Notes: generated from the sequence alone by a model not told the origin. Shown: positions 22,937-62,500, counted from the first letter of the stretch. The stretch: DNA of 64,000 nucleotides from Candidatus Dojkabacteria bacterium (GCA_041750555.1 JBGSZB010000029.1:672-64671), one strand, 5' to 3'. Program-made: numbers and translations.

Positions 22937-24214
22937 ATGAAAGTTTCAGTAATAGGATTAGGCTATGTCGGTTTACCACTACTTATAGCAATGAGTAATA
23001 AAACAAAACATAAAGTTGTGGGGTTTGATATTTCTCAAAAAACAATTGATAAAATAAATAATAATATATGTCCAGTAATTGATGAACAAACAGAGGAAGA
23101 ATTTAAAAAATCACAGAAGCTTAATGTTTCTAATGACATTAAAAGTATAAAAGACTCAGATGTATATATAATATGTGTTCCAACTCCAATTAATAGTGAT
23201 TTTGATCCTGATTATGGTCCTGTAATTGGTGCTACAAAAACAGTTTGTACATATTTAAAAAAAGGAAACATTGTTATTCTAGAATCAACAGTTAATCCTG
23301 GAACTTGTGAAGAAGTAATGGCTCCTGTTATCGAAGAAGTAACAAAATTAAAAATGGGTAAGGACTATGATATTGTACATGCACCTGAAAGAATTAATCC
23401 AGGGGATAAGACTTGGAATGTAACTAATTTATCAAGAAATATTGGAGGTTCTAGAATTGAAGCTAGTGAAAAAATTAAAAGGCTCTACTCTGAGTTTATT
23501 ACTGCTAATTTAAATGTAGTATCTAATTTAAAAGTAGCAGAAGCTTCTAAAATAGTTGAAAACTCATTTAGAGATTTAAACATTGCATTTGTAAATGAAT
23601 TAGCAAAATCATTTGATGCAATGGGAGTAGATTTAATAGAAACAATACAAGCTGCATCATCTAAATTTAGTTTTATGCCTCATTGGCCAGGTCCTGGAGT
23701 TGGAGGACATTGTATAGCAGTTGACCCATACTACTTAATTAAAAGAGCAGCTAAGTCTGGGTTTGACCATAGATTAATGAAAGAAGCTAGAAATATTAAT
23801 AATAGTATGCCAGATTACACAATTAGTAAATTATCTCTTTTATTAAATAGCTTAGAGCTTTCAATTAAGGGTACTAAAATTGCTCTTTTAGGTTTAAGCT
23901 ATAAACCTGAAGTTGGAGATTTAAGAGAAAGTCCATCACTTGTTTTAAAAAATAAACTTGAGAAGTTAGGTGCAGATTTAAATGTTTATGAACCATTTGT
24001 ACTATCACTATCTAATGTTAAAACGTTAGAAGAGGCTGTTAAGGGTTGTGATGTAGTTCTACTTACAACAGCTCATAACGAATTTAAGGATAAACTTACA
24101 GGTAGTTTCTTAAAGAAAATGAAAGTTAGGGCAGTTTTAGATACAAGAAACTGTTTAGACTTTAAAGATATTAGGAAAAATAAGGTATTATATACAGGAA
24201 TAGGTAGAAGTTAA
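22937..24214 (+). CDS. Nucleotide-sugar 6-dehydrogenase (UDP-N-acetylhexosamine dehydrogenase, WbpA/WecC/TviB-like)
   Basis: MKVSVIGLGYVGLPLLIAM...VVGFDISQKTIDKIN is the N-terminal NAD-binding motif. It includes the GFDI(N) signature of the UDP-GlcNAc/ManNAc dehydrogenase branch. The catalytic Cys region GGHCIAVDPYYL is also present. Confidence 0.85.
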   Translation: MKVSVIGLGYVGLPLLIAMSNKTKHKVVGFDISQKTIDKINNNICPVIDEQTEEEFKKSQKLNVSNDIKSIKDSDVYIICVPTPINSDFDPDYGPVIGATKTVCTYLKKGNIVILESTVNPGTCEEVMAPVIEEVTKLKMGKDYDIVHAPERINPGDKTWNVTNLSRNIGGSRIEASEKIKRLYSEFITANLNVVSNLKVAEASKIVENSFRDLNIAFVNELAKSFDAMGVDLIETIQAASSKFSFMPHWPGPGVGGHCIAVDPYYLIKRAAKSGFDHRLMKEARNINNSMPDYTISKLSLLLNSLELSIKGTKIALLGLSYKPEVGDLRESPSLVLKNKLEKLGADLNVYEPFVLSLSNVKTLEEAVKGCDVVLLTTAHNEFKDKLTGSFLKKMKVRAVLDTRNCLDFKDIRKNKVLYTGIGRS

Positions 24215-25674
24215 TGAAATTAATACAAGATAGATTAGCAGTTTATACAGCAATATATGGGGGTACCGATATATTAATCGATCCCCCTATAATTCCAGCT
24301 AATTGTGATTTCTTTTGTTTTACAGATAGAGATGATGTAGATTCTAGTATTTTTAAAGTAATTAAAACTCCTAGACTATTTCCTAATGATACTAATAGAT
24401 CTGCTAAATTCTTTAAAGTATTTCCACATAAAGTATTACCCGACTATGAATACTCTTTTTGGATAGATGCTAGAACATATATTAAAGATGAAAATATATT
24501 TAAAAAAACTGTTAACTTACTTAAGGATAATAACTTAGCAATATTTAAACACCCTGAACGAACTTCAATTTATGATGAGGCTAAAACTTGTATAGATTGG
24601 GGTAAAGATAAGGCTGAAATTATTAATCCTCAAATAGAAAAATACAAAAAGGATGGTTACTTAGATCAAGTAAGATTAATTGCAGGTACTTTCATATTTA
24701 GAAGACATCATTCTCGCGATGTAATTAAATTTGAAGAAGGTTGGTGGAAAGAAATACTAAAACACAGTAAAAGAGATCAGATTAGTTTCCCATATATTGC
24801 ATGGAAAACTAAGTTAAAGTTTAACGTAATTGAGAAAGACACTAACAACAACAACTTAGTTGGGGTATTAAGGTATAGAGAAAGAGATACACTTAAAACA
24901 ATAAAGATTTCAAATAAAAAGAACGGGAACAATATTGTTATTTACTCTGCTCTATTTGGAGACATAGACAACTATATTGAACATAATAAAATACCGGGGT
25001 GTGATATTGTACTTTTTACTGATAATAAAGAGTTAAAGCTTAAAAATACTAAAAAGATATTAATTGATCCTAATGGTTTTGATTCTAGAAAACTAGCTAG
25101 AATGTTTAAAACATTACCACATAAGTTTTTCCCAAACTATGAATACTCAATATGGATTGATGCTAGTATAGAAATAACTAATGATGCACTTGTAGATTTA
25201 ACATATAACTCTATTCAAACAAAAGATCTGGCGTGTTTCAAACATATGCATAGAGACACTCTTTATGATGAAGTTAATTCATGTTTAGAAAGAAAAAAAG
25301 ATAATCCATTTATTCTTACAACACAATACAGAGACTATAAAGCGGATAAATTTATTGATAATGGAACATTAATAGAATCAGGTGTATTAATAAGAAAACA
25401 CATGAATCCAGCATTAATTACCTTTTCTGAGAATTGGTGGAAAGAGATAAAAAAGTATTCAATAAGAGATCAGATTAGTTTTCCTTATGTACTATTTAAA
25501 AACCCAATAAAAATTAAACAATTAAGAGGCTTTATCTGGGAGAATCCATACTTTAGAGTAAGAGAACATAATGAAACTAGTTCTAAGTATGCTTCAATAA
25601 AGGTTAAACAAAATATTCTTAAAAACTTTAAGGAATACTTTAAATGGTATAAACTTTACCGGTCATTACATTAA
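24214..25674 (+). CDS. Tandem-duplicated DUF616-like putative glycosyltransferase
   Basis: Two internal copies of about 235 aa share the same motifs in the same order. YTAIYGGTD/YSALFGDID, FKHPERTSIYDE/FKHMHRDTLYDE and RDQISFPYIAWK/RDQISFPYVLFK are present in both. W(I)DA and WW(K)EI are common to both as well. The start overlaps the dehydrogenase stop. Confidence 0.55.
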   Translation: MKLIQDRLAVYTAIYGGTDILIDPPIIPANCDFFCFTDRDDVDSSIFKVIKTPRLFPNDTNRSAKFFKVFPHKVLPDYEYSFWIDARTYIKDENIFKKTVNLLKDNNLAIFKHPERTSIYDEAKTCIDWGKDKAEIINPQIEKYKKDGYLDQVRLIAGTFIFRRHHSRDVIKFEEGWWKEILKHSKRDQISFPYIAWKTKLKFNVIEKDTNNNNLVGVLRYRERDTLKTIKISNKKNGNNIVIYSALFGDIDNYIEHNKIPGCDIVLFTDNKELKLKNTKKILIDPNGFDSRKLARMFKTLPHKFFPNYEYSIWIDASIEITNDALVDLTYNSIQTKDLACFKHMHRDTLYDEVNSCLERKKDNPFILTTQYRDYKADKFIDNGTLIESGVLIRKHMNPALITFSENWWKEIKKYSIRDQISFPYVLFKNPIKIKQLRGFIWENPYFRVREHNETSSKYASIKVKQNILKNFKEYFKWYKLYRSLH

Positions 25675-28523: not shown

Positions 28524-29714
28524 TTAATTTTTTGAAATATATTTTTGAATATCCCATGATTTATCTAGGGTTAATAACCCTCTGTCTTTGTTATCAACTT
28601 CACTCCTTTCTATATGAAACACTGTAGATCTTTTATCCATAAAAAGAACTTTATCATTATTTTCATCAAGAACTGCAACATCTACATAATAGTCACCTTC
28701 ACTTAGGTTTAAGTTTTTTAAAGTTAGATAAACTGAATCACATTCTACTAAGTTTGAAATGTTTGAAAAATTTGAAGTAGTTTCATAAATTAATAAATCA
28801 TCGTCTCTAGTTAAACTAAATTTTAAATTATAATTTTGTACTAATTTCTTATTCTGAATAGCTGCTCTTATGCTTAAATCATAATCCTTAATAATCTCTG
28901 CTCTTACTTTTGAAACTACAATATCATTGTCCACCCTGTCATATTTTTCTTCTTCTGCTTTTTGTAGCTTTTCAATTTCAAGTAAGGATTGACGATACTG
29001 ATCAATACCTGTTCTTGTATCTCCATCAAATATGACTTCTCCTTGGTTTAACCATACAACCCTATTACAGTATTTTTGAACTGAACCTAAACTGTGACTA
29101 ACATAAATAACTGTTTTACCCTGTTCAATTAGTTTATTTATAACTCCAATAGATTTAGATCTAAATGCACCATCACCTACTCCAAGTATTTCATCTAAAA
29201 TATATATATCAGCATCAGTTTGAATAGCTATTGAGAAAGCTAATCTAACCTTCATTCCACTTGAATAGTTTTTAACAGGTGTATGTATAAAGTCTCCTAA
29301 TTCTGAAAACTCTACAATATCGTTATATCTTTTTTTAATCTCCTTAGTTGTTAAACCTAAAATTGCTCCATTAAGAAATATATTTTCTCTACCAGATAGT
29401 TCTGGGTTGAATCCAACTCCTAATTCTAGAAAAGGAACCATTCTTCCATTAACCGTAACCTCTCCTCCTTTATCTGGACTATATATCCCTGCAATTACTT
29501 TTAAAAGTGTTGATTTACCACTACCATTTCTACCTATTATTCCAATAAACTCACCTTTTTTAATATCTAAATGAATATTTTTTAATGCATGAAAAGGTTT
29601 AGATTTACCTTGATTAAAAAGTGAAACAACTAGAGATCTTAATGTATCCTTTTTATTATCTGCTATAAAAAAGGATTTATTTAAATTTTTTATACTTACT
29701 GCTATATCATTCAT
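28524..29714 (-). CDS. ABC transporter ATP-binding protein, Wzt/TagH-like polysaccharide exporter with a C-terminal extension
   Basis: Walker A GRNGSGKSTLLKVIAG, the signature YSSGMKVRLAF and Walker B IYILDE. A C-terminal region of about 150 aa follows the NBD, as in Wzt glycan-binding domains. Confidence 0.85.
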   Translation of the reverse strand: MNDIAVSIKNLNKSFFIADNKKDTLRSLVVSLFNQGKSKPFHALKNIHLDIKKGEFIGIIGRNGSGKSTLLKVIAGIYSPDKGGEVTVNGRMVPFLELGVGFNPELSGRENIFLNGAILGLTTKEIKKRYNDIVEFSELGDFIHTPVKNYSSGMKVRLAFSIAIQTDADIYILDEILGVGDGAFRSKSIGVINKLIEQGKTVIYVSHSLGSVQKYCNRVVWLNQGEVIFDGDTRTGIDQYRQSLLEIEKLQKAEEEKYDRVDNDIVVSKVRAEIIKDYDLSIRAAIQNKKLVQNYNLKFSLTRDDDLLIYETTSNFSNISNLVECDSVYLTLKNLNLSEGDYYVDVAVLDENNDKVLFMDKRSTVFHIERSEVDNKDRGLLTLDKSWDIQKYISKN

Positions 29715-29717
29715 AGT

Positions 29718-30500
29718 TTAAAAATACTCAGCTACTCTTTTTATTCTTTTGTTAAAGAATGACCAACCTAAAATAAAGATAATTAATGATCCTAAAAAGA
29801 ATATTATTCCCTTTTCTACATCAATTGTTCCATATACTCCTAACGCTGCTCTTACCTGATTAATTAATATTCCTACAGGGTTATATTTTAATATATATGA
29901 CATAACGCCTCCACTCCCTAAAGGGAAACTTGAAAGTGTAAAAAATATTGGTGTTAACCAATAAAGTAAAAAGAAACCTAGATCTACAATGTTTTTTAAA
30001 TCTCTAAATCTAATTGAAACTATACTAAAAAAGAAAGATATTCCAAGACATGCAATAAATGCACTTATTGTTAAGAAGATAAAGTACGCAAGACCTCCTA
30101 ATGTAACTTGAATATTATTAGCTAATATAAAGATTACTATTAACAACATATTTATTACTAAATTGATAAGTGCATTAAATTGAGATGCAATAACAGCTAT
30201 TTGTCTTGGGAAATTAACTTTAAGAATAATTCCTGCCTTATCTAGTAAAGACATCATACCCAGGGTTACCATTTCAGTTATATATGTATAAAAGATTATT
30301 CCAGTTAGTAAATAAAGTGAGAAAAATTCAACATCGTCATTTTGTCTAATCCTACTCCATATTAGAAAAAGAACTATAAAAGTTGCATATGGCTTTATTA
30401 ATACCCATAAAACTCCTAGTACGGAGTTTTGATATCTCATCTTAAAGCTTGTTTTTATTAGTTCTTTTAAAAGTGTAAAAGAGTTACGTGTTTTAATCAT
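29718..30500 (-). CDS. ABC-2 type polysaccharide export permease (Wzm/TagG-like)
   Basis: 260 aa and 6 TM helices. It lies immediately upstream of the Wzt-like ATPase, with a 3-nt gap. Confidence 0.8.
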   Translation of the reverse strand: MIKTRNSFTLLKELIKTSFKMRYQNSVLGVLWVLIKPYATFIVLFLIWSRIRQNDDVEFFSLYLLTGIIFYTYITEMVTLGMMSLLDKAGIILKVNFPRQIAVIASQFNALINLVINMLLIVIFILANNIQVTLGGLAYFIFLTISAFIACLGISFFFSIVSIRFRDLKNIVDLGFFLLYWLTPIFFTLSSFPLGSGGVMSYILKYNPVGILINQVRAALGVYGTIDVEKGIIFFLGSLIIFILGWSFFNKRIKRVAEYF

Positions 30501-30547: not shown

Positions 30548-31447
30548 CTATACCCTGAAAATTTTTAATCTCGAAATTATTGAATTTGAACGTATTAATT
30601 CTTTAGGTAAAGACATCCTTCCTTTTGAATTAAGAATCTTTATAGCTTCATAGTATTCTTTTGGTGATTTAAAATTTTTAATAAACCTTGATATTTCTTT
30701 GGTATTCTTAAAAGAATCAATTTCGCTTTTTTTCTCTGATATTTTGTTTTTTTTCATAAAATTTTCGAATTCATCTTTTACCTCATCTTTATCCAGCATT
30801 AATTTACCCTTAAAATCTCTCCCTATATTCAAACCAGCAAGCAGAATTTTAAAATCACTGTCGTTTTCTGATTCTCTTGACCAATAGCTTTCAAGTATAG
30901 AATTTACATCATCATGTTTTACACCATAGGTAAAGCCCTTTCGAAAGATATCTTCAAAATACTGTTCAAAATCATGAATTCCACAAACTACATCAGTAAT
31001 ATAATTATAATAACCATTCTTGTGCATTGATTTAATCATATGAGTTTCTGGTCTATTCTCATCAACTGATATATATTTCAGAGCTTCCGGTATGAAGCTT
31101 GTTCTATAAAATTTAATACCCCCAACCCTAACTCCACCAAAATACTTATCCAACATTGATGACTGTATTGTAAAAACTTTTTCGTTCTGTGTATTAGCAA
31201 TTTTTAAAAATTTAGTTAATACACCTTTAGCAATTAAAACATCTGCATCTATAACCATTGTCCATTTCTTATTAGCTTTTATACCTGCCTCCATTGAAGA
31301 ATATAGTGCCTTACTAAAAGGAAATTCGTTAATGACAAATATATTATTTTCATTACGCTCCTCTTCTAAAAGGGATATGCATAAATCTAATGTTCTCTCT
31401 TTTACCGATCTGATAACTATTAATACTTCCCTATCAAGATTCTTCAT
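30548..31447 (-). CDS. Hypothetical protein, possibly a GT-A-fold nucleotide-sugar transferase
   Basis: N-terminal VLIVIRSVKERTLDLC and a DxD-like WTMVIDADVLI. The assignment is weak. Confidence 0.3.
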   Translation of the reverse strand: MKNLDREVLIVIRSVKERTLDLCISLLEEERNENNIFVINEFPFSKALYSSMEAGIKANKKWTMVIDADVLIAKGVLTKFLKIANTQNEKVFTIQSSMLDKYFGGVRVGGIKFYRTSFIPEALKYISVDENRPETHMIKSMHKNGYYNYITDVVCGIHDFEQYFEDIFRKGFTYGVKHDDVNSILESYWSRESENDSDFKILLAGLNIGRDFKGKLMLDKDEVKDEFENFMKKNKISEKKSEIDSFKNTKEISRFIKNFKSPKEYYEAIKILNSKGRMSLPKELIRSNSIISRLKIFRV

Positions 31448-32304
31448 TTAATTGATCTTCTAAAATATACTTTTGTATCACTAATCTCTTTTCTTGGTAT
31501 TACCTTAGAAGTATTAATATCTACTACTTCATAATGAAGGTCATTTATTAAATCCCAAAGTTTCTCTGGGCTAAAGTAGTTAACGTGTTCCCAAGTATTT
31601 ATGCTTTTATCAAAAGGTCTCCCTTCCCTTATGCCATTAAGACTCCTTTCAAGTCTTTCTTGGGAATAATTAGGAACTATTATTAGTCCAATAAACTCAT
31701 CTGATAAGTACTTATCTATACTCGAAAGGATCTCTCTTGGATTAACAATATGTTCAAAAACTGCATTAGAAAAAAATATATTGTATTTTTTATCTGTGCT
31801 AAGCTCTTCAAAAGATTTAACACTATGGATACCTGTTTTATTCATATAATCTCTTTTTCTGTCATCATACTCAACAGTTGATACTTCGACTCCTGGAGCT
31901 GAAATATTCAAAGCAAAATCTCCCCATCCAGAACCAAACTCCAAAACCTCAAGTTTATCAGAGTTCTCTATTTTATCTTTAAATAGGTAACTAAATATCT
32001 CGACTTTCAAGATTGAGTAGAACAGTCTTTTTGAATTTTTAAATATCTTAGTCTTACTCTCATTAGCATCTATAATCTTTCCATATATTACAGACATTCC
32101 TTCCTCGTCAAGAACTTCAGAGGTGAATACAAACTTACATTTTCTACACTTTACTATATTTATTTCGTTAAGGTTAATAATATCACTTCTATAAATTGTT
32201 TCCCTATCTAAAGAAGGGTTAATATCAACAAAGTCTTTGTAATTCACAGATATTAGACAATCAAACTTGTTAGATTTACATAGAGGACAATTTCTTTTAA
32301 TCAA
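31444..32304 (-). CDS. SAM-dependent methyltransferase with an N-terminal Cys4 zinc ribbon
   Basis: CPLCKSNKF...CRKCKFVF is the zinc ribbon. VLEFGSGWGDFA is motif I. Both flanks overlap their neighbours by 4 nt. Confidence 0.7.
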   Translation of the reverse strand: MIKRNCPLCKSNKFDCLISVNYKDFVDINPSLDRETIYRSDIINLNEINIVKCRKCKFVFTSEVLDEEGMSVIYGKIIDANESKTKIFKNSKRLFYSILKVEIFSYLFKDKIENSDKLEVLEFGSGWGDFALNISAPGVEVSTVEYDDRKRDYMNKTGIHSVKSFEELSTDKKYNIFFSNAVFEHIVNPREILSSIDKYLSDEFIGLIIVPNYSQERLERSLNGIREGRPFDKSINTWEHVNYFSPEKLWDLINDLHYEVVDINTSKVIPRKEISDTKVYFRRSIK

Positions 32305-33989
32305 TTATTAACAAGCTCTTGAAATAAATTATTAAGTATATATATCTGTATCTTACCTTTGAAGTCATTAAATAACTCCCTCTTCCAAGATCCAAGAGGT
32401 ATACTAAAACCTTTTTTAGCCCTATTAATGATCTTATTTGGCAATATATCCTTGTATGCATACTTTAATAGGCCCTTCAGTTCTCCGTTCAAATATTTTA
32501 TTTCTTCTGGAACTGTAAACATATATTCAATAAGCTTTCTAGATTGTAGCGGAACTCTTACTTCTAGGGCTACAGACATTGAAACCCTGTCAACCTTTGT
32601 CAAAATATCACTTGGCAAATAAGTATTAAAATCCATATACTGAAGTCTTGTACGCAAAGGCAAATCTTTTTTATAATATTTTCTTATATACCAGTAGTCA
32701 TCATAATCCCTAGGAATGTTCCAGAGTTTTCTATACTCAAATTTTTCTTCTTTAGTTAAACCTGATATATGTTTAATATACAGAGTAAAGATATTATTAT
32801 CACTTAAAGTTGGATTAAATTTATCAATAAATATATTTTTCAACTTCTTACTTTCGTTCCAAATAGAGTTATACCATACATATCCCCCAAATATTTCATC
32901 ACCTCCGTCACCAGTCAATACAACAGTTGAATCTTTTCTTGCAAATTCTGAAACATAGTAGGTTGGGAATGCTGAAGTATCTGAGAAAGGTTCATCATAC
33001 CAACTTTTTAACTTTGAAAACAATGAGCTGATGTCTTTACTCTCCAAATATTTAACAGAGTGCTTAGTTTTAAACTTCTCTGAAACTAAAAGTGCATACT
33101 CAGTTTCATCTTTCTCATTATCCTTATATCCTATAGAATAAGTATTAAGTTGTTTCGTAAATTTTGAAGATGTAGAGACTACTATACTTGAATCCATACC
33201 TCCACTTAAGAAAAACCCAACAGGAACATCGCTGACTAGGTGGGAGCTGACTGACTCATCAATGATATTACGAATCTTATCTGCACATTCACTAAGATTT
33301 GAGTTGTTAAATTTAACACTCAAACTCCAATATTTATTTATTGAAAGAGATCCACTTCTTAAATTAAATCTAAGATAACTACCCGGTTCAAGCTTATATA
33401 CATTCTTGTAAGGAGTTTTAGGTTCGGGTATATAGTTATATGTTAAAAAATCATATAAAGCTGTTTTATCAATATCTAAAGAATTGTTTTTATGAAAATA
33501 TTGTAAAGACTTCAGTTCTGACCCCCAGGCAAGAGTATCTTTTATAAATGAATAGTATAGTGGTTTTATTCCAACCCTATCTCTTATGAGATATATATCT
33601 TTACTCTTAACATCATAAATAGATATTGAATACATCCCTTCAATTTTGGAAAGTAATTTTTCTATACCCCATTTCTTAAAACCATAGAGTACTACTTCAG
33701 AGTCTGACTCACTTTTAAACTTAAACTCATAGAGCTCCTCTCTTAACTCCTTATAATTATAAATTTCACCGTTAACACTTATCACTACTGTGTTGTTTTC
33801 ATCAAACATTGGCTGTTTACCGTTATCAGAAATATCTAGTATGCTTAATCTTCTATGTCCCATATATATATCCTCATCAGACCAATCACTCCATTGATCA
33901 GGCCCTCTATGTGACAATGTGTCTAGTGCATTCCTCGAGTGCTGGATATTTTTTTTATTAAAATTTGTATGACCAAATATTCCACACAT
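32301..33989 (-). CDS. Asparagine synthase (glutamine-hydrolysing) family amidotransferase (AsnB/WbpS-like)
   Basis: MCGIFG is the N-terminal nucleophile Cys2 of class II glutamine amidotransferases. The synthetase-domain PP-loop SGGMDSS is present. Confidence 0.9.
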   Translation of the reverse strand: MCGIFGHTNFNKKNIQHSRNALDTLSHRGPDQWSDWSDEDIYMGHRRLSILDISDNGKQPMFDENNTVVISVNGEIYNYKELREELYEFKFKSESDSEVVLYGFKKWGIEKLLSKIEGMYSISIYDVKSKDIYLIRDRVGIKPLYYSFIKDTLAWGSELKSLQYFHKNNSLDIDKTALYDFLTYNYIPEPKTPYKNVYKLEPGSYLRFNLRSGSLSINKYWSLSVKFNNSNLSECADKIRNIIDESVSSHLVSDVPVGFFLSGGMDSSIVVSTSSKFTKQLNTYSIGYKDNEKDETEYALLVSEKFKTKHSVKYLESKDISSLFSKLKSWYDEPFSDTSAFPTYYVSEFARKDSTVVLTGDGGDEIFGGYVWYNSIWNESKKLKNIFIDKFNPTLSDNNIFTLYIKHISGLTKEEKFEYRKLWNIPRDYDDYWYIRKYYKKDLPLRTRLQYMDFNTYLPSDILTKVDRVSMSVALEVRVPLQSRKLIEYMFTVPEEIKYLNGELKGLLKYAYKDILPNKIINRAKKGFSIPLGSWKRELFNDFKGKIQIYILNNLFQELVNN

Positions 33990-34063: not shown

Positions 34064-37000
34064 TTAATCAATTGTGCCTAATAAAATATCTGTTGATTTT
34101 CCTGATTCACTATTCCAATCTCCATCTGGTGTAAACGAATCAACCTCATTTGATAATGCAACTATCCATCTAAATTGATTATTGTTTGATGGAACAACTC
34201 TTAAAGTCATAATATCTGTATCGCCATCACCATCAAAATCTCCTAACTTTACTTGATCACTACTCTTTCCCCAAGCACTATTCCAGTCCCCATCTGGTGT
34301 AAATGAATTACTTCCATTTGATAGTGCTACTATCCATCTAAATTGGTTTTTATTTGAAGTTACAACCCTTAAAGTCATAATATCAGTATCGCCATCGCCA
34401 TCAAAATCTCCTAACTTAACTTGGTCAGTACTCTTTCCCCAAGCACTGTTCCAGTCTCCAGTTGGAGTAAAAGCATTACTTCCATTTGATAGTGCTACTA
34501 TCCATCTAAATTGATTGTTATTTGAAGTTACAACTCTTAAGGTCATAATATCTGTATCGCCATCACCATCAAAATCTCCTAATTTTACTTGATCACTACT
34601 TTTACCCCATGCACTATTCCAGTCCCCATCTGGTGTAAACGAATTACTTCCATTTGATAGGGCAACTATCCACCTTAATTGATTATTGTTTGATGGAACC
34701 ACTCTTAAAGTCATAATATCTGTGTCGCCATCTCCATCGAAATCTCCTAATTTAACTTGGTCAGTACTTTTTCCCCATGCACTGTTCCAAGTAACTTCAG
34801 GAAGAAAGGTATTAGTTAAAGCATTTGCTAGGGATACTCTCCAAACAAGTTGATTATTTTGATTTGGATCAACCCTAATAGATAGTATATCCATTGCTCC
34901 ATCTCCATTAAAGTCTCCTGATTTTATTGTATCTCCACCTTGGCCAAAGTCAGTATTCCAATCTCCTGCAGGTACAAACGTTTGTTCCTGGGTATTCGAA
35001 TACATTGTTATTAACCTATAGCTATCCGTTGAAGAAACATATCTAGCTAATACACTATCATCTGCACTATCTTCAATTAATGGATTGTTATAGTTGTTTA
35101 TTAACCTCTCTAAATTTAGCATACCCCAACCTGTATCATTATCAAAACCTTTAGTATTAATATCTGTTGTACTAGATTTCAATAATGTTTCTACCATTCT
35201 AAAGCTTAGTGTAGAGTCTAAAGATTTAAGTAACGCAACTGCTGCACTCACTTGAGGAGCTGCGAAACTAGTACCTGCAAAAGTTTCAGGTGTAGTGGCT
35301 GATGTAAAATCAAAGAACAAATCGGGATTACTTTCATTAAAACAACTATCAGTTAGGGAGCAACTAAACATTTGAGTTGCAACTTTTGCACCACTATCTC
35401 CTACTGGTGCTACTAAATCTAAACTAGTTCCATAATTTGAGTAAGATGATCTAGAATCATTTGAATTAATAGCACCAACATTTATTACATTAGACATACC
35501 TGCAGGGAAATAGTTATTTGTATTATCATTATTGTTTCCTGATGCTACAACTACAATTACACCTAAACTTGCTGCTTCATCAATAATTGATTGAAGTAAT
35601 GGATCTGTTCCACCTCCTGTTAAACTCATATTAATTACATCAGCTCCATTAGAAATTGCATGATCAATTGAATAGTATAGTATTAAACTATCACTAACTG
35701 ATCTTAGAGAGTATTGTTGATTACCATTTAGACAATCAGGATCATTATTACCTAGTGAGTCATAACACATAGAGGTATCATTTGGATAAAATGCTTTAAT
35801 TGGCATAATTGATACATTATGTGCAATCCCAACTAAAGAATTTGGTGCATCATCTGAAACACCTGATGCAATAACATTTGTAACTGCTGTACCATGTCCT
35901 TCATCATCATTCGCATGATTAATTTTTTCTAATTCATCTGCATTACAAGGTGTACTGTTTTCCCCTCTTAGGAAACATAGCAAATCTTGATTAGCATCAT
36001 ATGGATTTACAAATAGTACATGAGCTAATTCAGGTGTTGCAAAATATTCTCTGTCATAACCTTCATTGTATACACCATTACCAGTATTATTTGATGGAAT
36101 CTCCATATTAATTCCACCAATATCAGTTAAGGTATAGTCACTTCCTGCATCGTATAGATAATCTTCATAAGCTACACCTGTATCAATTACTGCAACAATT
36201 GTTGTATCACTTCCTCCACAATCATCATCTAATTCACAACCTTCTAAGAGTTTCCAAGCTTCAGGTAACTTAATTTTATCTAAATACCAATGAGTTGTTT
36301 CATCATAATCTCTAGGTATTGATCTATTTATATCAGTATTATCCCACGAAGATATTGTATATTTTCTTCTAGTTTGAGCTAATCCATCAGGATCTTTTTG
36401 AATTACTTGAATTAGGGATGATCTTAAATATGATTCATCCACCTCTAGTATTGTAAATTCTCCTAGAGTTTTACTACTTTCAATATTTACAACATTGTTT
36501 AATACTTCATTTTTTAAGGCAGTATCACTTTCCTTGTAAACTATTTCTACTGTATTTCCGGTACTCACATAACTATCAGTTATAATATTTTCATCAATAT
36601 ATTCTGAAACTTCGTTAAACGCTCCCTTTGTATTATTTGCAACATTAACAGCAGAATTTACTATATTAGGTAATTCTGCATACAAAACTTCTCCAGGACA
36701 TAGTGTTGCATTTCTATCACTATGACCTACAACGCTAGATCCAAAACTTAAATTAAATCCATTTAATTGAGATAGTGCAGCCATAAGTCTAACTAGTGAA
36801 CTTCTAGCAATACCTGTAGGAAGTGAATAAGAGTAATCTCCAATAAAGGATATTCCAATAGTTCCACCATTTGGAGGTGAATGAGCTCCAATAGTTCCAT
36901 TACCCCCTACTCTACCTTCGTAAATGTTTCCAAATTGATCAATTAGATAATTGTATCCAATATCTTGCCATAGTTCATCAGGTTCATCACAGTTAGGGTC

Positions 37001-37681
37001 ACTTGGGTTATAGCTTCCATTATTATTAGAACATCTGTTTTTATGCATTTCGTATATAAATCTAACTGCATTTGATGGATCACTATTATCTACATTAGTA
37101 ACAGTATGATGTACAACAATATTATTAACTGTAGATGGAACTTGGGGATACCATAAACTTTCACTACTAGCTCCCCAATCTTCTCTTGGAATAATATTAA
37201 TGCCTAATTTATTAAAGAAATCTTTTTTTGCTTGAACCGATTCTACGCTTGCCTGTTTAGTAACATTGTTACTTAGTTCAAAATTAACAATTCTTTTAAC
37301 ATTAAAATTACTACTTAACAAAACTTCATTAATTACTCTATCTCTAATTATTTGATTAGTAGTATACACTTGAGAACTAGTTTTAATAGTTTCAATTGAA
37401 TCAAAACCATCTTCACTTAACTCAATATTAATTATTTCATCACTTCCGTCATCAAATCGTAATACTACTCCTTCATTCAATAAGGATTCATTAAACTCAT
37501 TAAGTTCAATAACAAATGATTTTGAATTAACACTATATGATTGAGATTGATCATAATCAAACTCTAAGGCTTTAGCTACATTCTCTATTCTACTATCGCT
37601 ATACCTTAAAATTGGGAATATGAAACTATAAATAGATAGCACTATTAAAAAAGAAACGCCTAGTTTTCTTAAACTTATCAT
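34064..37681 (-). CDS. Large secreted multidomain protein with an N-terminal signal anchor, an amidase_2/PGRP (N-acetylmuramoyl-L-alanine amidase) domain, a subtilisin-like S8 protease domain and C-terminal FG-GAP repeats
   Basis: Amidase_2: NIVVHHTVT...WQDIGYNYLIDQFGNIYEGRVGGNGTIGAHS...GTIGISFIGDY. S8 catalytic triad: VAVIDTGV (Asp), DDEGHGTAVTNV (His), GTSFAAPQVSAAVALL (Ser). There are four near-identical plus one divergent copies of the 56-aa repeat KLGDFDGDGDTDIMTLRVV.SNNNQ.RWIVALSNGSNSFTPDGDWNSAWGKS.DQV, and the C-terminal end carries a further truncated copy. These are FG-GAP/VCBS-like. The N-terminus has the TM helix LGVSFLIVLSIYSFIFPIL. Confidence 0.85.
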   Translation of the reverse strand: MISLRKLGVSFLIVLSIYSFIFPILRYSDSRIENVAKALEFDYDQSQSYSVNSKSFVIELNEFNESLLNEGVVLRFDDGSDEIINIELSEDGFDSIETIKTSSQVYTTNQIIRDRVINEVLLSSNFNVKRIVNFELSNNVTKQASVESVQAKKDFFNKLGINIIPREDWGASSESLWYPQVPSTVNNIVVHHTVTNVDNSDPSNAVRFIYEMHKNRCSNNNGSYNPSDPNCDEPDELWQDIGYNYLIDQFGNIYEGRVGGNGTIGAHSPPNGGTIGISFIGDYSYSLPTGIARSSLVRLMAALSQLNGFNLSFGSSVVGHSDRNATLCPGEVLYAELPNIVNSAVNVANNTKGAFNEVSEYIDENIITDSYVSTGNTVEIVYKESDTALKNEVLNNVVNIESSKTLGEFTILEVDESYLRSSLIQVIQKDPDGLAQTRRKYTISSWDNTDINRSIPRDYDETTHWYLDKIKLPEAWKLLEGCELDDDCGGSDTTIVAVIDTGVAYEDYLYDAGSDYTLTDIGGINMEIPSNNTGNGVYNEGYDREYFATPELAHVLFVNPYDANQDLLCFLRGENSTPCNADELEKINHANDDEGHGTAVTNVIASGVSDDAPNSLVGIAHNVSIMPIKAFYPNDTSMCYDSLGNNDPDCLNGNQQYSLRSVSDSLILYYSIDHAISNGADVINMSLTGGGTDPLLQSIIDEAASLGVIVVVASGNNNDNTNNYFPAGMSNVINVGAINSNDSRSSYSNYGTSLDLVAPVGDSGAKVATQMFSCSLTDSCFNESNPDLFFDFTSATTPETFAGTSFAAPQVSAAVALLKSLDSTLSFRMVETLLKSSTTDINTKGFDNDTGWGMLNLERLINNYNNPLIEDSADDSVLARYVSSTDSYRLITMYSNTQEQTFVPAGDWNTDFGQGGDTIKSGDFNGDGAMDILSIRVDPNQNNQLVWRVSLANALTNTFLPEVTWNSAWGKSTDQVKLGDFDGDGDTDIMTLRVVPSNNNQLRWIVALSNGSNSFTPDGDWNSAWGKSSDQVKLGDFDGDGDTDIMTLRVVTSNNNQFRWIVALSNGSNAFTPTGDWNSAWGKSTDQVKLGDFDGDGDTDIMTLRVVTSNKNQFRWIVALSNGSNSFTPDGDWNSAWGKSSDQVKLGDFDGDGDTDIMTLRVVPSNNNQFRWIVALSNEVDSFTPDGDWNSESGKSTDILLGTID
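34090..34960. repeat. Tandem direct repeat, about 168-bp unit, four near-identical copies plus degenerate flanking copies, encoding the FG-GAP repeats
   Basis: The motif taaagtcataatatc[t/a]gtatcgccatc[a/g]ccatcaaaatctcctaa recurs at about 34202, 34370, 34538 and 34706, a 168-nt spacing with over 90 percent identity. Confidence 0.85.
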
Positions 37682-37727: not shown

Positions 37728-38510
37728 TTACACATCAGAAGCCCTATCCCAAGCGAGTTCAAATAACTGTTTTTGCATATCAGATATTTTTTTATTATAA
37801 ATCTCTACACCAAATATTTCTGTATCATACCAAAGGTAGAATGCTAATACATCGTTATATATATCTACTTGATGATTAATATCTAAAACAGTTTTAGATA
37901 AATACTTAGTTCTAAAGTGATTAGAATACTCCAGTTCCTTAACAGATTCACCAGCTAAACTTGCTAAATAACTATCACTTACTAAATCTCTAATAACTAA
38001 ATTTCTTTTAATAAACTCTTCTCTCCAATCACTTTCAAATTTTTCACCTACTATCTCTTTTAATGATCTAAATGTATATCCTATTACCTCTTTATTACAT
38101 CTTAATGTATTCCAAACCATCTGTTTTATACCTTCAACTCCTTTATATACTTGAATCTTAGTTCCAGGTTGTGTAATTGATTCGCTACTTGTAATAAGGC
38201 TTGTTAATTCAGGTAATATCTTTCTTAAAAAATCAGCTTTTGATTCTTGCTCTTTAACTATAAGTTCTAATTTATGAGTACCAACTGGATAAAGTAATCT
38301 TTTATTATCCCTCATTATCTCTTCTAACAAACCTATCTCTTTTAAATCTTCAACTAATCTATAAACATTTGTTCTACTAATTCTACTCTCTCTTGATAAC
38401 TGTAATATTGTGATCCCTGGATAATCAAGTAGAGTTAAATAAATCTTAGATTGATCTACATTTAATCCTAGATTGGACAAGAATTTTATTATTCCATCGA
38501 TACTTCTCAT
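37728..38510 (-). CDS. TrmB-like winged-HTH transcriptional regulator
   Basis: The N-terminus IIKFLSNLGLNVDQSKIYLTLLDYPGITILQLSRESRISRTNVYRLVEDLKEIGLLEE is a TrmB-type HTH. The C-terminal domain is about 170 aa. Confidence 0.6.
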   Translation of the reverse strand: MRSIDGIIKFLSNLGLNVDQSKIYLTLLDYPGITILQLSRESRISRTNVYRLVEDLKEIGLLEEIMRDNKRLLYPVGTHKLELIVKEQESKADFLRKILPELTSLITSSESITQPGTKIQVYKGVEGIKQMVWNTLRCNKEVIGYTFRSLKEIVGEKFESDWREEFIKRNLVIRDLVSDSYLASLAGESVKELEYSNHFRTKYLSKTVLDINHQVDIYNDVLAFYLWYDTEIFGVEIYNKKISDMQKQLFELAWDRASDV

Positions 38511-41637: not shown

Positions 41638-42915
41638 TCACTGGCTTCTTTTTTTAAACACACCAATTAACCACTTATGACTTCTTTTAGTATGATCAAT
41701 CTTAATCATTTCTAACCCTACCTTAGATGCCCTTTGAGTTAACTCTTCAGGGGTAAATAAATGGTAAAACCTTTCAATAGTTGTATAACTTTTTTTAGAT
41801 CGCTCTGTTATCTCCCCTGTACCCTCTCTAACAACTGCATAAAGAATACCTCCATCCACTAATGCATCTGCAATTTTTTGAAATACAGCATCTAAATGTT
41901 CATTAGATACATGATGAATAGAATCTCTAGCCCATATTCCTTTAAATTTATTAACTCCAATATCTACTTTGACAATATCTCCTAATATAATTTCAGAATT
42001 AGGATTTTCAAATCTAGCAATGTTTACAAATTTAGAGCTAATATCTATACCTGTAAGTTTAAATCGCTCTGATAAATACTTTAAATCATACCCTGGACCA
42101 CAGCCAATATCTAACACTTGAGCTGGTGGATTAATCATAGAGATAAAATCATCTAATTGTTCTTGAGCTACAAGCTTTCCTGCATGCTCATTATGATATT
42201 GACTAGATACCCTATTGTATTCTTGTGCTAAGGATTTTGATCTATCAGAGATAACAAAAGCTAATTCATCTCCTTGAAAGTTCTTAGTTTTACAATTTTG
42301 AACTAATATTTCATGCTTAGTAATAATATCCAAGACTTCTTTAGCCGTATTTGCTTGATACAAAACAACTAATTCAGTTTCATCAATATACATGGACTTT
42401 TGAAAAGCTTCTATTAAAGGATCCCAGAAATCTCCGAAAAGTATTACAGGTTTATGACATCCATAGTACAACTTTGCTAAAGCCCAAACTAATCCAAGTT
42501 CAGAAATTGTACCTGTTCCACCTTTACAGACAACATAAGCATCCCCTTTTTCAATAAGGCCTAATGTTCTCATCATATAATTTGATGATGTTTCAGATTC
42601 ATCAACTACATTAGCCAAATTTTTACCTTCAAAAACAGAAGCTAATCTGGGTTCCCAATATACAGCAATAGTTTTACCACCGACACTTTCAGCTCCATCA
42701 GTTGCAGCTTTCATGATTCCAGGACCTCCTCCATTAACTATTGTAAATCCATTTTCAGCTAAATACTTAGAGGTTTCCCATACAGACTTATATATCACAT
42801 CATCTTCAGGGATCGCAGAATCACCAAAGAAGGTTATATTATTTATTAATCTATCCTTATGGTTTCCATTAGTTTCTCCATTTTCTCTTTTAGGTAATTC
42901 AACAACTGTTGGCAT
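41638..42915 (-). CDS. Fusion protein: LOG-family (TIGR00730, cytokinin-riboside-5'-phosphate phosphoribohydrolase-like) N-terminal domain plus class I SAM-dependent methyltransferase C-terminal domain
   Basis: LOG motifs GGGPGIMKA (GGGxGxM) and CKGGTGTISELGLVWALAKL (PGGxGTxxE). MTase motif I VLDIGCGPGYDL and a downstream acidic motif. Confidence 0.8.
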   Translation of the reverse strand: MPTVVELPKRENGETNGNHKDRLINNITFFGDSAIPEDDVIYKSVWETSKYLAENGFTIVNGGGPGIMKAATDGAESVGGKTIAVYWEPRLASVFEGKNLANVVDESETSSNYMMRTLGLIEKGDAYVVCKGGTGTISELGLVWALAKLYYGCHKPVILFGDFWDPLIEAFQKSMYIDETELVVLYQANTAKEVLDIITKHEILVQNCKTKNFQGDELAFVISDRSKSLAQEYNRVSSQYHNEHAGKLVAQEQLDDFISMINPPAQVLDIGCGPGYDLKYLSERFKLTGIDISSKFVNIARFENPNSEIILGDIVKVDIGVNKFKGIWARDSIHHVSNEHLDAVFQKIADALVDGGILYAVVREGTGEITERSKKSYTTIERFYHLFTPEELTQRASKVGLEMIKIDHTKRSHKWLIGVFKKRSQ

Positions 42916-59556: not shown

Positions 59557-62500
59557 ATGTCAACAAAATCAAGAATCAACCTGACAAAAAATCCAGTTCC
59601 TCATATAGATATGGATTTTTTAGAAGCTCAAAAGAGCTTTTTCAGACAGTTTATGGAAGATGGATTTCAATCTTTATTTGAAGAGATAAATCCAATATCA
59701 GACTATACTAATAGTTCATGGGAGATTACATTAGAAGATGTTGACTGGGGAGAACCCAAAATCTCATTTAGAGACGCTCAATTACTTGGATTAACATACG
59801 ATGTTCCAGTTTTTGTAGATGTAAAATTACTTAACAAAAGAAGTGGAGAGATAAAAAAACAAAGAATTTATCTTTGTGATATGCCAATAATGAGTGATAG
59901 AGGATCATTTATGGTTAATGGTAATGAAAGAGTTGTAGTTTTTCAAATATTAAGAAGTGAGGGTGTTTTATTCTCTGAGGGTAAAAACTCTACACCTAAG
60001 AAAAGACTTTACTCAGTTAAATTAATGCCTCATAGAGGTAACTGGTACGAGTTTGAAATAAATAAATACGGAGTAATGAGTATTAAATTACTTCAAAAAA
60101 GACCTAGAATTTTATTAACTACATTAATGAGAGCCCTAGGTTACAGTTCAGATGCAGAAATTAAAAAAGCATTAGGTGGCTCAGATGAAGGAGAGATGAG
60201 TTTTATTGATGCAACATTAAAGAAAGATCCAACTAAGAATACAGAAGAAGCTTTAATTGATATCTATAGAAAATTAAGACCAGAAGATACAGTAACTGTA
60301 GAAAATGCTAAAGCTTTAATTGATAATATTTTCTTTAACAAAAGAAGATTTTACTTAGGAAAGATTGGTAGATACAAATTAAATAAAAAGTTAAAAATTA
60401 ATGAAGACTTTACAATAGATGACTACCTATTAAAGAAAAGAGATGTAATAGAAGTTATAAAGTGTTTACTTGAATTAAATCATGGTACAAGAAACCCAGA
60501 TGATATTGATAGTTTAAGTAATAGAAGAATAAGAGGTGTAAATGAATTAGTTGCAGAAAAATTAAGAGTAGGTGTTCTAATAATGGAGAAGAGTATTAGA
60601 GATAAGATGAGTACTTATTCTACAGATGAAAAAGTTACTCCTGCAATGATTGTAAATACAAGACCAATTATCTCAGCTGTTAAACAATTCTTTGGAAGTA
60701 GTGCTTTAATGAGATTCATGGACCAAGAAAATCCATTGAGTGAGTTAGAAGCAAAAAGAAAGATTTCAGCAGGAGGACCAAGAGGTTTAACTAAAGAGAG
60801 AGCAACATTCTCAGTTAGAGATGTACATAACTCTCATTACGCAAGATTATGTCCTGTAACTACTCCTGAAGGTCCATCAGTTGGTATGGTTAACCAAATG
60901 GCAATTTATACAAAAATTAATGAATTTGGATTTTTAGAATCACCTTACTATCCAGTTATTACTAAGTTTAATAAGGATAGTAAAGTTAAAGAATTTATAG
61001 GAAGAATCTTAGGCGAAGATATTAAAAGTGGAGGTAAAGTAATCGCTAAGAAAGGAAGTATTTTAAGTGAAGAATTAATTAAAAAGATAAATAAAGAGGT
61101 TAGTGAGTTTAGAGTAAATCCTTTTATAAACAAGGAAACTGTATATTTAGATGCTGACGAAGAGTTAACTCATAAGATAGCCAGCTCAAGTATACATACA
61201 GATGATAAAAACAATATTTTAGAAGAATACACATACGTTAGAGATGGACAAAACTATGTAAAGATCTCTACTAGTGATATTGATTTAATTGACGTTAGTC
61301 CAGCACAAATTGCAGGTATGGGACTATCATTAATTCCTTTTGCAGGAAATGATGACCCTAACAGAACATTAATTGGTGCTAAGACACAAAACCAAGCTAT
61401 ACCTTTAGTAAAACCACAGTCTCCAATTGTTGGAACTGGATTTGAAAGAGATGCTGCAAGAGCAACTGGAAGAACAGTATTTGCAGAAGAAGACGGTAAA
61501 GTTATTGCAGCTGATGGTAGTTTGTTAGTTGTACAATACAAAAATAATAAAAATAAAACAGAATATCCTATTGAGAAATTTGTTAGAACAAATCAGAACT
61601 CATCTTTTACTCAGATTCTAAGAGTATTACCTAATACTCAATTTAAAAAAGGAGATGTATTAATTGATGGTCCTGCAACAGAGAACGGAGAATTAGCATT
61701 AGGAGCTAATTTAAGAGTAGCTTACGTTGTTTATGATGGATACAACTTTGAAGATGGAATTGTAATTTCAGAAAGATTAGTTAGAGAAGATGTTTTAACA
61801 TCTGTTCATATTCATGAATTTTTACAAGAAGTTAGAGAAACAAAATTAGGCGATGAACAAATAACAGCAGATATACCTGGAGTTGGAGAATGGACATTAA
61901 GAAATTTAGACGAAGAAGGCGTTGTAAGAATTGGAGCATATGTTCAATCAAATGATGTTTTAGTTGGAATAATCGCTCCTAAGGGAGAAGCAGAATTAAC
62001 TGCTGAAGAAAAACTTTTAAGAGCAATCTTTGGTGAATATGCAAGAGATGTTAGAGATAACTCATTAAGAATGCCTCATGGAGAGCATGGAGTTGTAATA
62101 GGAGTACAAGTTTTAGATAGAAATAGTGGAGCTAAATTAAATGCAGGAGTTATTAAACAAGTTAAAGTATGGGTTGCAAAAACTCATAAGATATCAGTTG
62201 GAGATAAATTAACCGGTTTCCATGGAGATAAAGGCGTTATAACAAAGATTGTTCCTGACGCTGATATGCCATTTACAGAAGATGGAAAACCTGTAGATAT
62301 TGTATTAAACCCAATATCTATGATTAGAAGAATGAACTTAGGTCAGTTATTAGAAACACATATTGGTGAATTAGCACATAAATTAGGTGTAAAGGTTGAA
62401 GTTCAACCATTCTCAGAATATTCTAAAGATCCATTAGTAGAGTTAGCTAAAAAACAAGGATTAGAATATGTTGAAAAAGTTGATTTATACGATGGTAAAA

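Follow-up and report, generated by a model that had tools for sequence, protein, structure and literature searches.

A predicted lectin-guided amidase-subtilase protein encoded in a glycan-export locus of Candidatus Dojkabacteria

We analyzed a 64,000-nucleotide stretch of DNA from a Candidatus Dojkabacteria bacterium (GCA_041750555.1, JBGSZB010000029.1:672-64671), hereafter the window, and concentrated on one gene at 34064-37681 that encodes a predicted surface enzyme. The gene is a single reading frame of 1205 amino acids (aa), as an earlier note on this DNA had stated, and an identical protein is on record in NCBI (P0001, from a 72,133-bp contig). Pfam searches place all three domains named in that note above their cut-offs: Amidase_2 (PF01510, 52.6 bits against 26, aa 184-331), Peptidase_S8 (125.6 bits against 21.8, aa 493-853) and FG-GAP_3 (76.7 bits against 26.9, in five stretches). 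The assignment of the organism is consistent with RpoB from the same window (59557-63006), for which nearly all named matches, at 56-75% identity, are Candidatus Dojkabacteria, with one at 65% labelled Doudnabacteria. The domain boundaries and neighboring genes are collected in Table 1.

The N-terminus has the features of a signal peptide or signal anchor. Residues 7-25 have a mean Kyte-Doolittle hydropathy of 2.33, the maximum of the whole protein, and are the sole hydrophobic segment noted at the N-terminus, and most homologues in the family alignment carry canonical AXA↓Q cleavage sites at the equivalent position. Eleven cysteines are present, including five close pairs (217/231 and the four listed for the subtilase in Table 1), and C569, C579, C774 and C780 are kept in at least 90% of 30 family members. 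The hydrophobic N-terminus and the paired cysteines match an extracellular, disulfide-bonded protein. Export is therefore well supported as a prediction, and the secretion asserted in the earlier note is probable. The domain that follows, aa 39-165, gave no Pfam match.

In the amidase, the residues required for activity are all in place. We read conservation in two family alignments, of 13 and 30 sequences; the former shows no variation at the zinc ligands H191/H192, H320 and C328 or at the catalytic Y243 and T326, and the latter keeps each of these in at least 90% of its members. The closest PDB sequence matches are peptidoglycan recognition proteins (PGRPs; 4z8i, E 7e-14), and the segment GHSDRNATLCPG pairs with GHRDVGSTACPG of the cysteine-bearing PGRP3, where PGRP1 and PGRP-LE have a serine. 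The domain is predicted to cleave the bond between N-acetylmuramic acid (MurNAc) and L-Ala of peptidoglycan. The window protein shares the Amidase_2 fold with animal PGRPs and T7 lysozyme, and has the zinc ligands and the cysteine characteristic of the catalytic ones. Unlike animal PGRPs, however, the window protein is bacterial and multidomain, has no immune role and carries an insert (aa 217-231) that holds the Cys217-Cys231 pair.

The subtilase aligns with many solved subtilases through its HGT, SGN and GTSxAAP motifs, and neither family alignment shows any variation at its triad D500, H596 and S805 or its oxyanion residue N716. An insert of approximately 60 aa separates the Asp from the His. 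Thus the catalytic residues of both enzymes align and are invariant or conserved in the family, none being misaligned or absent, in agreement with the earlier note. Two named protease families were tried and rejected, the type VII secretion system (T7SS) mycosins (TIGR03921, 133.4 against a cut-off of 278.75) and dentilisin PrtP (NF033595, 69 against a cut-off of 300). These are the best NCBIfam matches and lie far below the cut-offs, and by this measure the protease cannot be placed in a named equivalog. Genes for type VII secretion were likewise not seen in the window.

Between the two enzymes lies a segment that we assign as a putative internal pro-domain of the subtilase. We predicted the full-length protein with AlphaFold2 (AF2; aa 30-1205, 14-sequence alignment) and used only the secondary structure of this model, for which the mean predicted local distance difference test score (pLDDT) was 48.9 and the predicted template modelling score (pTM) 0.39. 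Within this weak model, aa 377-441 form a β-α-β-β-α-β arrangement, at a pLDDT of 64-72. Subtilase pro-domains have this topology. The segment ends in an IQPNYxY strand, the most conserved non-catalytic motif of the family (Q436 in all aligned members, P437 and Y441 in at least 90% of them), and is followed by HWxLxKIxxPEAW, which we take to resemble the start of mature S8 enzymes.

Comparison with relatives reveals the same segment in other settings. Stand-alone S8 relatives (for example P0141) carry a domain of this type directly behind the signal peptide, and the stand-alone amidases P0143, P0147 and that of locus L007 have a pro-domain-like tail which ends approximately at the IQPNYxY strand. 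In locus L006, where the enzymes are encoded by split genes, the S8 protein shows a weak match to Fervidolysin_NPro (PF22148) in the corresponding position (E 0.003, under the cut-off), and its VELVEPNYIFKKSIW aligns to the window IQPNYxY motif with an hhalign probability of 81%. Direct searches for Inhibitor_I9 and solved pro-domains were negative, and so the pro-domain is one that we infer. Since it is internal, processing would separate the two enzymes.

Next to the subtilase, the C-terminal region was amenable to confident structure prediction. The AF2 model of aa 866-1205, calculated with 68 FG-GAP homologues, has a pLDDT of 90.2 and a pTM of 0.88, and contains 25 strands that make up five complete four-stranded blades together with three N-terminal and two C-terminal strands. 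In this model the domain is a closed six-bladed propeller, with the sixth blade shared between both ends. The "five-plus" FG-GAP repeats of the earlier note thus become five full blades and one split blade. Each full blade carries the calcium motif DxDxDGxxD (DFNGDGAMD in one, DFDGDGDTD in four).

A Foldseek search of the PDB returned 9oee_A at the top (E 1.3e-14, query TM-score (TMq) 0.78), eight orders of magnitude ahead of CRTAC1 and integrin alpha chains (E 1e-6 to 1e-5, TMq ~0.49), and 317 of the 340 residues of the model can be matched to a solved lectin with six blades. The 9oee entry is Streptomyces UmbA4 with teichuronic acid, in which pockets within and between the blades of a six-bladed lectin read a species-specific wall glycopolymer (PMC13274773). 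As the closest solved relative binds a cell-wall glycopolymer, "lectin" is a better label than the "integrin-like adhesion module" of the earlier note, of which the calcium-binding motifs stand. The propeller is probably a lectin that binds a surface glycopolymer, by analogy to its structural neighbors, of which UmbA4 binds teichuronic acid and PVL binds N-acetylglucosamine. Homologous propellers are often fused to M23 and CHAP domains, as would suit a module that directs wall enzymes to their target. We observed fusions to an M23 peptidase, CHAP or PF08924 in the propeller homologues P0267, P0279, P0307, P0314, P0365, P0360 and P0271; the named examples are from Actinobacteria and one archaeon, and propeller-guided wall hydrolases seem to be widespread and little described. 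No further FG-GAP genes were found in the window.

We explored the distribution of the amidase-S8 core using a filter-free phmmer search with aa 150-870 against 1.84 billion representatives. Approximately 27 clusters (at 50% identity) span the full core, and shorter proteins match the amidase half or the S8 half alone. The core relatives are 28-51% identical to the window protein (the closest 43-51%), and those with names are Dojkabacteria or Woykebacteria. The C-terminal modules vary among 30 core members: FG-GAP in eight, DUF5648 in six, H_lectin in two, TIG in two and unrecognized repeats in the rest. RpoB has a relative at 92% identity (P0382, on a 67.5-kb Logan contig) and the amidase-S8 protein has none above ~51% anywhere. 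Either the evolution of this surface protein is very rapid, or the gene is absent from the close relative or was left out of its assembly.

The related loci show four gene arrangements. The enzymes are fused, amidase then S8, in the window, L001 and L081-L086, are encoded by two adjacent genes on the same strand in L006 and L087, are divergent neighbors in L005, L007 and L008, and stand in the reversed order, S8 then amidase, in L009. Judged from these gene orders, the amidase-S8 pairing is a conserved functional unit, kept through all four arrangements. In L009 the separate amidase and S8 proteins each end in three copies of one DUF5648-like repeat. The gene next after the fused enzyme in L001 (9059-11410, plus strand) encodes a PKD and DUF5648 protein with the module found in that genome's enzyme. 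Thus the C-terminal module, common to both L009 enzymes and to the L001 neighbor, behaves as a shared targeting device which both enzymes need. In the complete Dojkabacteria genome KatS3mg085 (L004, AP024679.1, 3400-8300), the amidase-S8 orthologue and the gene before it, for a 745-aa glycosyltransferase (GT), are each split over several frames, with the Wzm/Wzt synteny intact; as two neighboring genes are broken, these look like assembly frameshifts and not a pseudogene. Our literature search found no paper naming both Pfam families together and none relevant on an Amidase_2 and S8 fusion or on Dojkabacteria wall enzymes, and the word "subtilisin" is absent from a broad review of cell-wall hydrolases (PMC6403190).

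The gene lies within a glycan-synthesis locus. Downstream, on the same strand, are genes for an AsnB-like amidotransferase, a methyltransferase, an unknown open reading frame (ORF), the Wzm and Wzt components of a glycan ABC exporter and a 708-aa multi-GT protein, and farther glycan genes of the window encode a UDP-glucose dehydrogenase and a TOD1/MUCI70-like protein. In L081, L082, L086 and L004 the order is a ~745-aa double GT1, the enzyme gene, Wzm, Wzt and more GTs; in L086 other genes stand between the GT and the enzyme gene, and in L082 HisRS and RecJ lie upstream, as in the window. L006 has the GT upstream and Wzt close by on the opposite strand, L084 and L085 are surrounded by GTs, epimerases, GtrA and PMT_2, and the flanks of L007 and L009 hold UDP-glucose dehydrogenase, a GalE-like gene and GT2. 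Overall, 10 of the 11 loci with readable flanks are glycan-synthesis loci (the window, L004, L006, L007, L009, L081, L082, L084, L085 and L086), six of them with Wzm/Wzt or Wzt adjoining (besides the window, the pair in L004, L081 and L082 and Wzt in L086 and L006). On these comparisons the association persists down to 28-50% protein identity, through gene fission, inversion and reordering. The link to a "glycan island", which the earlier note had mentioned, is therefore real and stronger than it had claimed. Its other neighbor, a TrmB-family gene, is present immediately upstream in the window and kept in no related locus examined.

The window methyltransferase and the next unknown ORF are also found in L086. 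The presence of an amidotransferase and a methyltransferase between the enzyme and Wzm/Wzt, the latter and the unknown ORF being shared with L086, suggests an amidated or methylated glycan. In L004, L006, L081, L082 and L086 a GT gene precedes the amidase-S8 gene, in most of them directly, and the window encodes its orthologue (41-47% identical) at 2124-4373 (minus strand) as a 749-aa double GT1. As this is 30 kb from the enzyme gene, the window locus has been rearranged, and TrmB, PIG-L and patatin genes hold the upstream side. In L007, a gene that appears FemAB-like by eye (a peptidoglycan interpeptide-bridge transferase; 2684-3700, plus strand) adjoins the stand-alone amidase gene of the divergent pair, a further hint of a connection with own-wall synthesis.

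We propose that the protein is a Sec-exported modular envelope enzyme, which would consist of a signal peptide, an N-domain, a zinc amidase, a pro-domain, an S8 protease and a calcium-binding propeller lectin. This anatomy, together with targeting to a glycopolymer, is the part of the proposal in which we have considerable confidence. The propeller would dock the enzymes on a repetitive surface glycopolymer, most likely one made and exported by the adjacent Wzm/Wzt locus, and the unit would serve as an autolysin and wall-associated protease in wall turnover, daughter-cell separation and surface-protein processing. A glycopolymer-targeted amidase/protease unit that acts on the producer's own wall is our best explanation, and we judge its chances to be about even. 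That related genes, too, lie within a glycan-export locus of the organism itself favors self as the target; taken separately, the identity of the target as the producer's own wall has at most that same even chance, and perhaps slightly less. Parallels are known: Amidase_2 autolysins are anchored on teichoic acids, and in Bacillus subtilis the autolysin genes lytABC and lytD adjoin the tua and tag loci, TagGH being a Wzm/Wzt-type exporter.

The internal pro-domain provides a possible means of coordinating the two activities. An autocatalytic cut near Y441 would yield an N-domain-amidase-pro-domain piece and an S8-propeller piece, which could stay non-covalently joined via the pro-domain until this is degraded, and the protease would thereby both be linked to amidase activity at the wall and set its timing. 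By analogy to other subtilases, we consider such autoprocessing to be evenly poised between right and wrong. The predicted N-terminal product is equivalent to the stand-alone amidases in domain content.

A bolder version is that Dojkabacteria have re-used the pro-domain as a tether and timer linking a peptidoglycan amidase to a lectin-guided protease, with the fused, split and lectin-duplicated forms all coupled alike. In the fused forms, autoprocessing after IQPNYxY would give two enzymes held by the pro-domain; in the split forms, the pro-domain-like tail of the amidase would dock on the S8-lectin protein; and in other genomes each enzyme would have a separate copy of the lectin. This exchangeable module would fit the species-specific glycopolymer of the organism itself or of a host, and so set cell-cell or host specificity. 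We regard this as distinctly doubtful, and offer it as a conjecture.

Several observations weigh against the action of such a unit on the producer's wall, or against its proposed mechanism. The closest structural relative, UmbA4, aims at the wall polymer of other bacteria and not that of its producer, and the swapping of lectin modules would be expected from a change of host just as much as from co-evolution with a variable glycan of the organism itself. The synteny cases share ancestry and are not independent, and L083 is the sole readable locus outside a glycan context. The middle domain had no PDB match by profile search and no Pfam match (Inhibitor_I9) across 12 members, and hhalign against the subtilisin BPN' pro-peptide, using an approximate query sequence, was negative; the pro-domain assignment relies on the topology of a low-confidence model, with the mean pLDDT given above, and on comparative anatomy.

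In an alternative reading, which the earlier note had raised, the target is the wall of a host or prey. Here the lectin would recognize a host glycopolymer, and where an episymbiont touches its host the two enzymes would breach the wall or S-layer of the latter. UmbA4 binds the teichuronic acid of target bacteria species-specifically, and a lectin module swapped among orthologues is what changing targets would predict. Furthermore, candidate phyla radiation (CPR) bacteria are generally host-dependent (PMC13293708), and for the CPR predator Vampirococcus it has been suggested that secreted peptidoglycan hydrolases break down the wall of the host (PMC8080830). However, the gene is conserved within the organism's own Wzm/Wzt glycan locus, and purifying selection holds the blades alike rather than diversified (see below). 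Several surface proteins per genome carry the same module in L001 and L009, which is typical of self-wall anchoring though compatible with attack on a host, and no host is known for Dojkabacteria. We consider an attack on a host wall, the main rival to our explanation, possible, but unlikely.

Alternatively, the enzymes may scavenge nutrients, with a wall-anchored S8, comparable to lactococcal PrtP, and an amidase that together supply an amino-acid auxotroph with peptides and stem peptides, taken from protein and muropeptides of the environment or of a host. CPR genomes generally are without amino-acid biosynthesis (PMC13293708), and the S8 domain is intact and predicted to be surface-targeted. 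Nevertheless, we found no specific support for this role and saw no peptide-transporter linkage in the loci examined, the conserved partner being a glycan exporter and not an uptake system, which renders scavenging improbable.

We then return to the tandem repeats that encode the blades. Tandem Repeats Finder reports an array at 34108-34789 with a period of 168 bp (4.1 copies, 86% matches, no indels, score 991), and a separate repeat search gave the same period, as the earlier note had described. For comparison, the array was divided in frame into units of 56 codons each. Among themselves, units 2-5 share 81.5-88.7% DNA identity and 84-93% protein identity, and unit 1 is ~61% identical to them in DNA and ~46% in protein; the units are thus less alike than the "near-identical", over 90% identical copies of that note. 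Nei-Gojobori analysis of units 2-5 counted 13-21 synonymous against 5-12 non-synonymous differences, with ~34 of 168 sites synonymous, such that 60-75% of the differences are synonymous though synonymous sites are ~20% of the total. The proportion of synonymous sites that differ (pS) is 0.39-0.61, with synonymous (dS) and non-synonymous (dN) rates of 0.55-1.25 and 0.04-0.095 and a dN/dS of 0.06-0.11. The GC content is 28.6% and third positions are mostly A or T, so a pS near 0.5 is close to saturation. Synonymous sites that are half-saturated, together with a low dN/dS, indicate that the copies are old and under purifying selection, without recent expansion, and by the same comparison the units show no sign of homogenization by conversion or slippage.

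The blades are 0.82-0.93 identical within the protein and at most 0.46 identical to the blades of the FG-GAP homologues P0002, P0006 and P0012, which have an internal blade similarity of their own. The amplification is therefore lineage-specific. Repetitive VCBS/FG-GAP propellers are described as arising by the amplification of a single blade, with a median of six blades and usually a function in carbohydrate recognition (Pereira & Lupas 2022, PMC9218822). Lineage-specific blade amplification is common to those propellers and the window protein, whereas here the amplification is not very recent and the similarity has been kept by selection. Four like blades under selection suggest that each may bind the same repeat unit of the polymer, giving multivalent binding.

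These data bear on the view that the array is a contingency locus for a variable adhesin, with a recent expansion or a still changing copy number as suggested in the earlier note. The perfect period, the lineage-specific amplification and the report that the blade number of repetitive VCBS propellers can vary within a lineage (PMC9218822) are in its favor. However, the units are 11-18% apart in DNA, with synonymous sites near saturation for an AT-rich genome, and they close a six-bladed ring that argues against free copy-number change, which makes this view very unlikely. The same closed ring argues against an artefactual repeat number, produced by collapse or expansion of the array during assembly. 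The contig is of a metagenome type, but the reading frame is intact, the model with six blades is confident, closed and similar to a solved six-bladed lectin, and units with this divergence can be told apart by short reads; we give such an artefact hardly any credence. Finally, a prophage endolysin or mobile toxin cargo has a next to negligible probability, since, despite matches of the amidase to PHROG endolysin/amidase families and of the S8 domain to a phage "protease" family, the neighbors are ordinary chromosomal housekeeping and glycan genes (including HisRS, RecJ, RpoB and Wzm/Wzt) with no phage genes nearby, synteny is kept across Dojkabacteria, the composition is unremarkable and the N-terminus is of the Sec type.

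Table 1 Features of the amidase-S8 gene and its neighbors, in window coordinates.
Feature	Coordinates	Strand	Basis or remark
Whole ORF, 1205 aa + stop (34064-34066)	34064-37681	-	Single intact reading frame
Putative signal peptide or signal anchor, aa 1-38	37568-37681	-	Basic n-region, hydrophobic aa 7-25, possible site VAKA↓LE
Family-specific N-terminal domain, aa 39-165, predicted β-rich	37187-37567	-	Weakly conserved; model confidence low
Amidase_2/PGRP-type Zn amidase, aa 166-340	36662-37186	-	Pfam, alignments
Helical linker then putative internal S8 pro-domain, aa 341-441 (core ~377-441)	36359-36661	-	Topology, relatives
Subtilase S8 catalytic domain, aa 442-865; Cys pairs 482/488, 569/579, 639/650, 774/780	35087-36358	-	Pfam, alignments
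Predicted lectin, six-bladed FG-GAP/VCBS-type β-propeller, aa 866-1205; split blade ~875-901 + 1183-1205	34067-35086	-	
Repeat unit 1, diverged (blade 1)	34811-34978	-	
Repeat units 2-5 (blades 2-5): 34640-34807, 34472-34639, 34304-34471, 34136-34303	34136-34807	-	
TrmB-family helix-turn-helix gene	37728-38510	-	46 bp upstream of enzyme gene
AsnB-like glutamine amidotransferase	32301-33989	-	Between enzyme gene and Wzm/Wzt
Methyltransferase	31444-32304	-	Between enzyme gene and Wzm/Wzt
Wzm (ABC2_membrane)	29718-30500	-	Downstream, glycan ABC exporter
Wzt (ABC_tran + Wzt_C)	28524-29714	-	Downstream, glycan ABC exporter

Scans of the window for expression signals and RNA genes were largely negative. 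The gene has no clear Shine-Dalgarno sequence, and a promoter and terminator scan gave counts equal to the shuffled expectation and was uninformative. No tRNA genes, and no Rfam families at the gathering threshold, were found in the whole 64 kb. Two further genes have unusual products. The TOD1/MUCI70 glycosyltransferase-like protein (PF04765), from what is presumably a mostly eukaryotic, plant family, is encoded in the glycan locus both of the window (24214-25674, plus strand) and of L082 (15437-16207), with 48% identity between the two. At 41638-42915 (minus strand), a LOG/SLOG "lysine decarboxylase-like" domain is fused to an S-adenosylmethionine (SAM)-dependent methyltransferase, an uncommon pairing.

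Comparison with known systems indicates the features that distinguish the protein. Modular Gram-positive autolysins and endolysins, such as Staphylococcus aureus Atl-AM, Streptococcus pneumoniae LytA and PlyL and PlyG of Bacillus phages, are secreted and combine an Amidase_2 zinc amidase with C-terminal repeats that bind wall glycopolymers, as an exchangeable targeting module, and the window protein is predicted to be alike. In contrast, it has a putatively complete pro-subtilase between the amidase and the targeting module, which is a six-bladed FG-GAP propeller and not a set of choline-binding, GW, SH3b or SLH repeats. The wall subtilases WprA, Epr, lactococcal PrtP and the mycosins are exported and wall-associated and have an S8 domain with a pro-domain, features also predicted here. 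In B. subtilis, the extracellular proteases WprA and Epr break down two autolysins, CwlO and LytE (PMC3817527), so that coupling of a protease to an autolysin is already known in trans. Here, however, the coupling would be in cis or between adjacent genes, and the putative pro-domain is internal.

UmbA4 (PDB 9oee) likewise attaches a glycopolymer-binding six-bladed lectin to a protease-fold domain. UmbA4, however, joins a bulb lectin to a trypsin-like domain and acts on other species as part of the UmbA/B/C toxin particle, whereas no trypsin domain was found in the window protein by Pfam and the lectin fold alone is common to the two. The blades of UmbA4 have diverged in their sugar pockets, in contrast to the four highly similar blades of the window protein. 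No umbB-like or umbC-like genes are present among the 20 annotated ORFs, which include the flanking genes, the rest of the window not having been searched for them.

Thus, the protein is a predicted modular wall hydrolase with three unusual features: a conserved coupling of an amidase to a subtilase that is confined to a small set of CPR genomes, a putative internal pro-domain that may tether the enzymes, and a swappable predicted lectin. The first reading of its repeats as a hypervariable array is replaced by that of a selected, putatively multivalent propeller. To our knowledge, no Dojkabacteria have been cultured, and the envelopes, division and host attachment of the CPR/Patescibacteria are almost unknown. 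A conserved amidase-protease unit in a glycan locus provides a concrete handle on this biology, and an internal pro-domain linking two enzymes is a testable mechanism. The nearest relative of the predicted lectin reads species-specific wall polymers. Should the lectin correspond to the glycan locus beside it, surface-polymer types could become predictable from genomes; if it instead matches a host polymer, it could help to identify the hosts.

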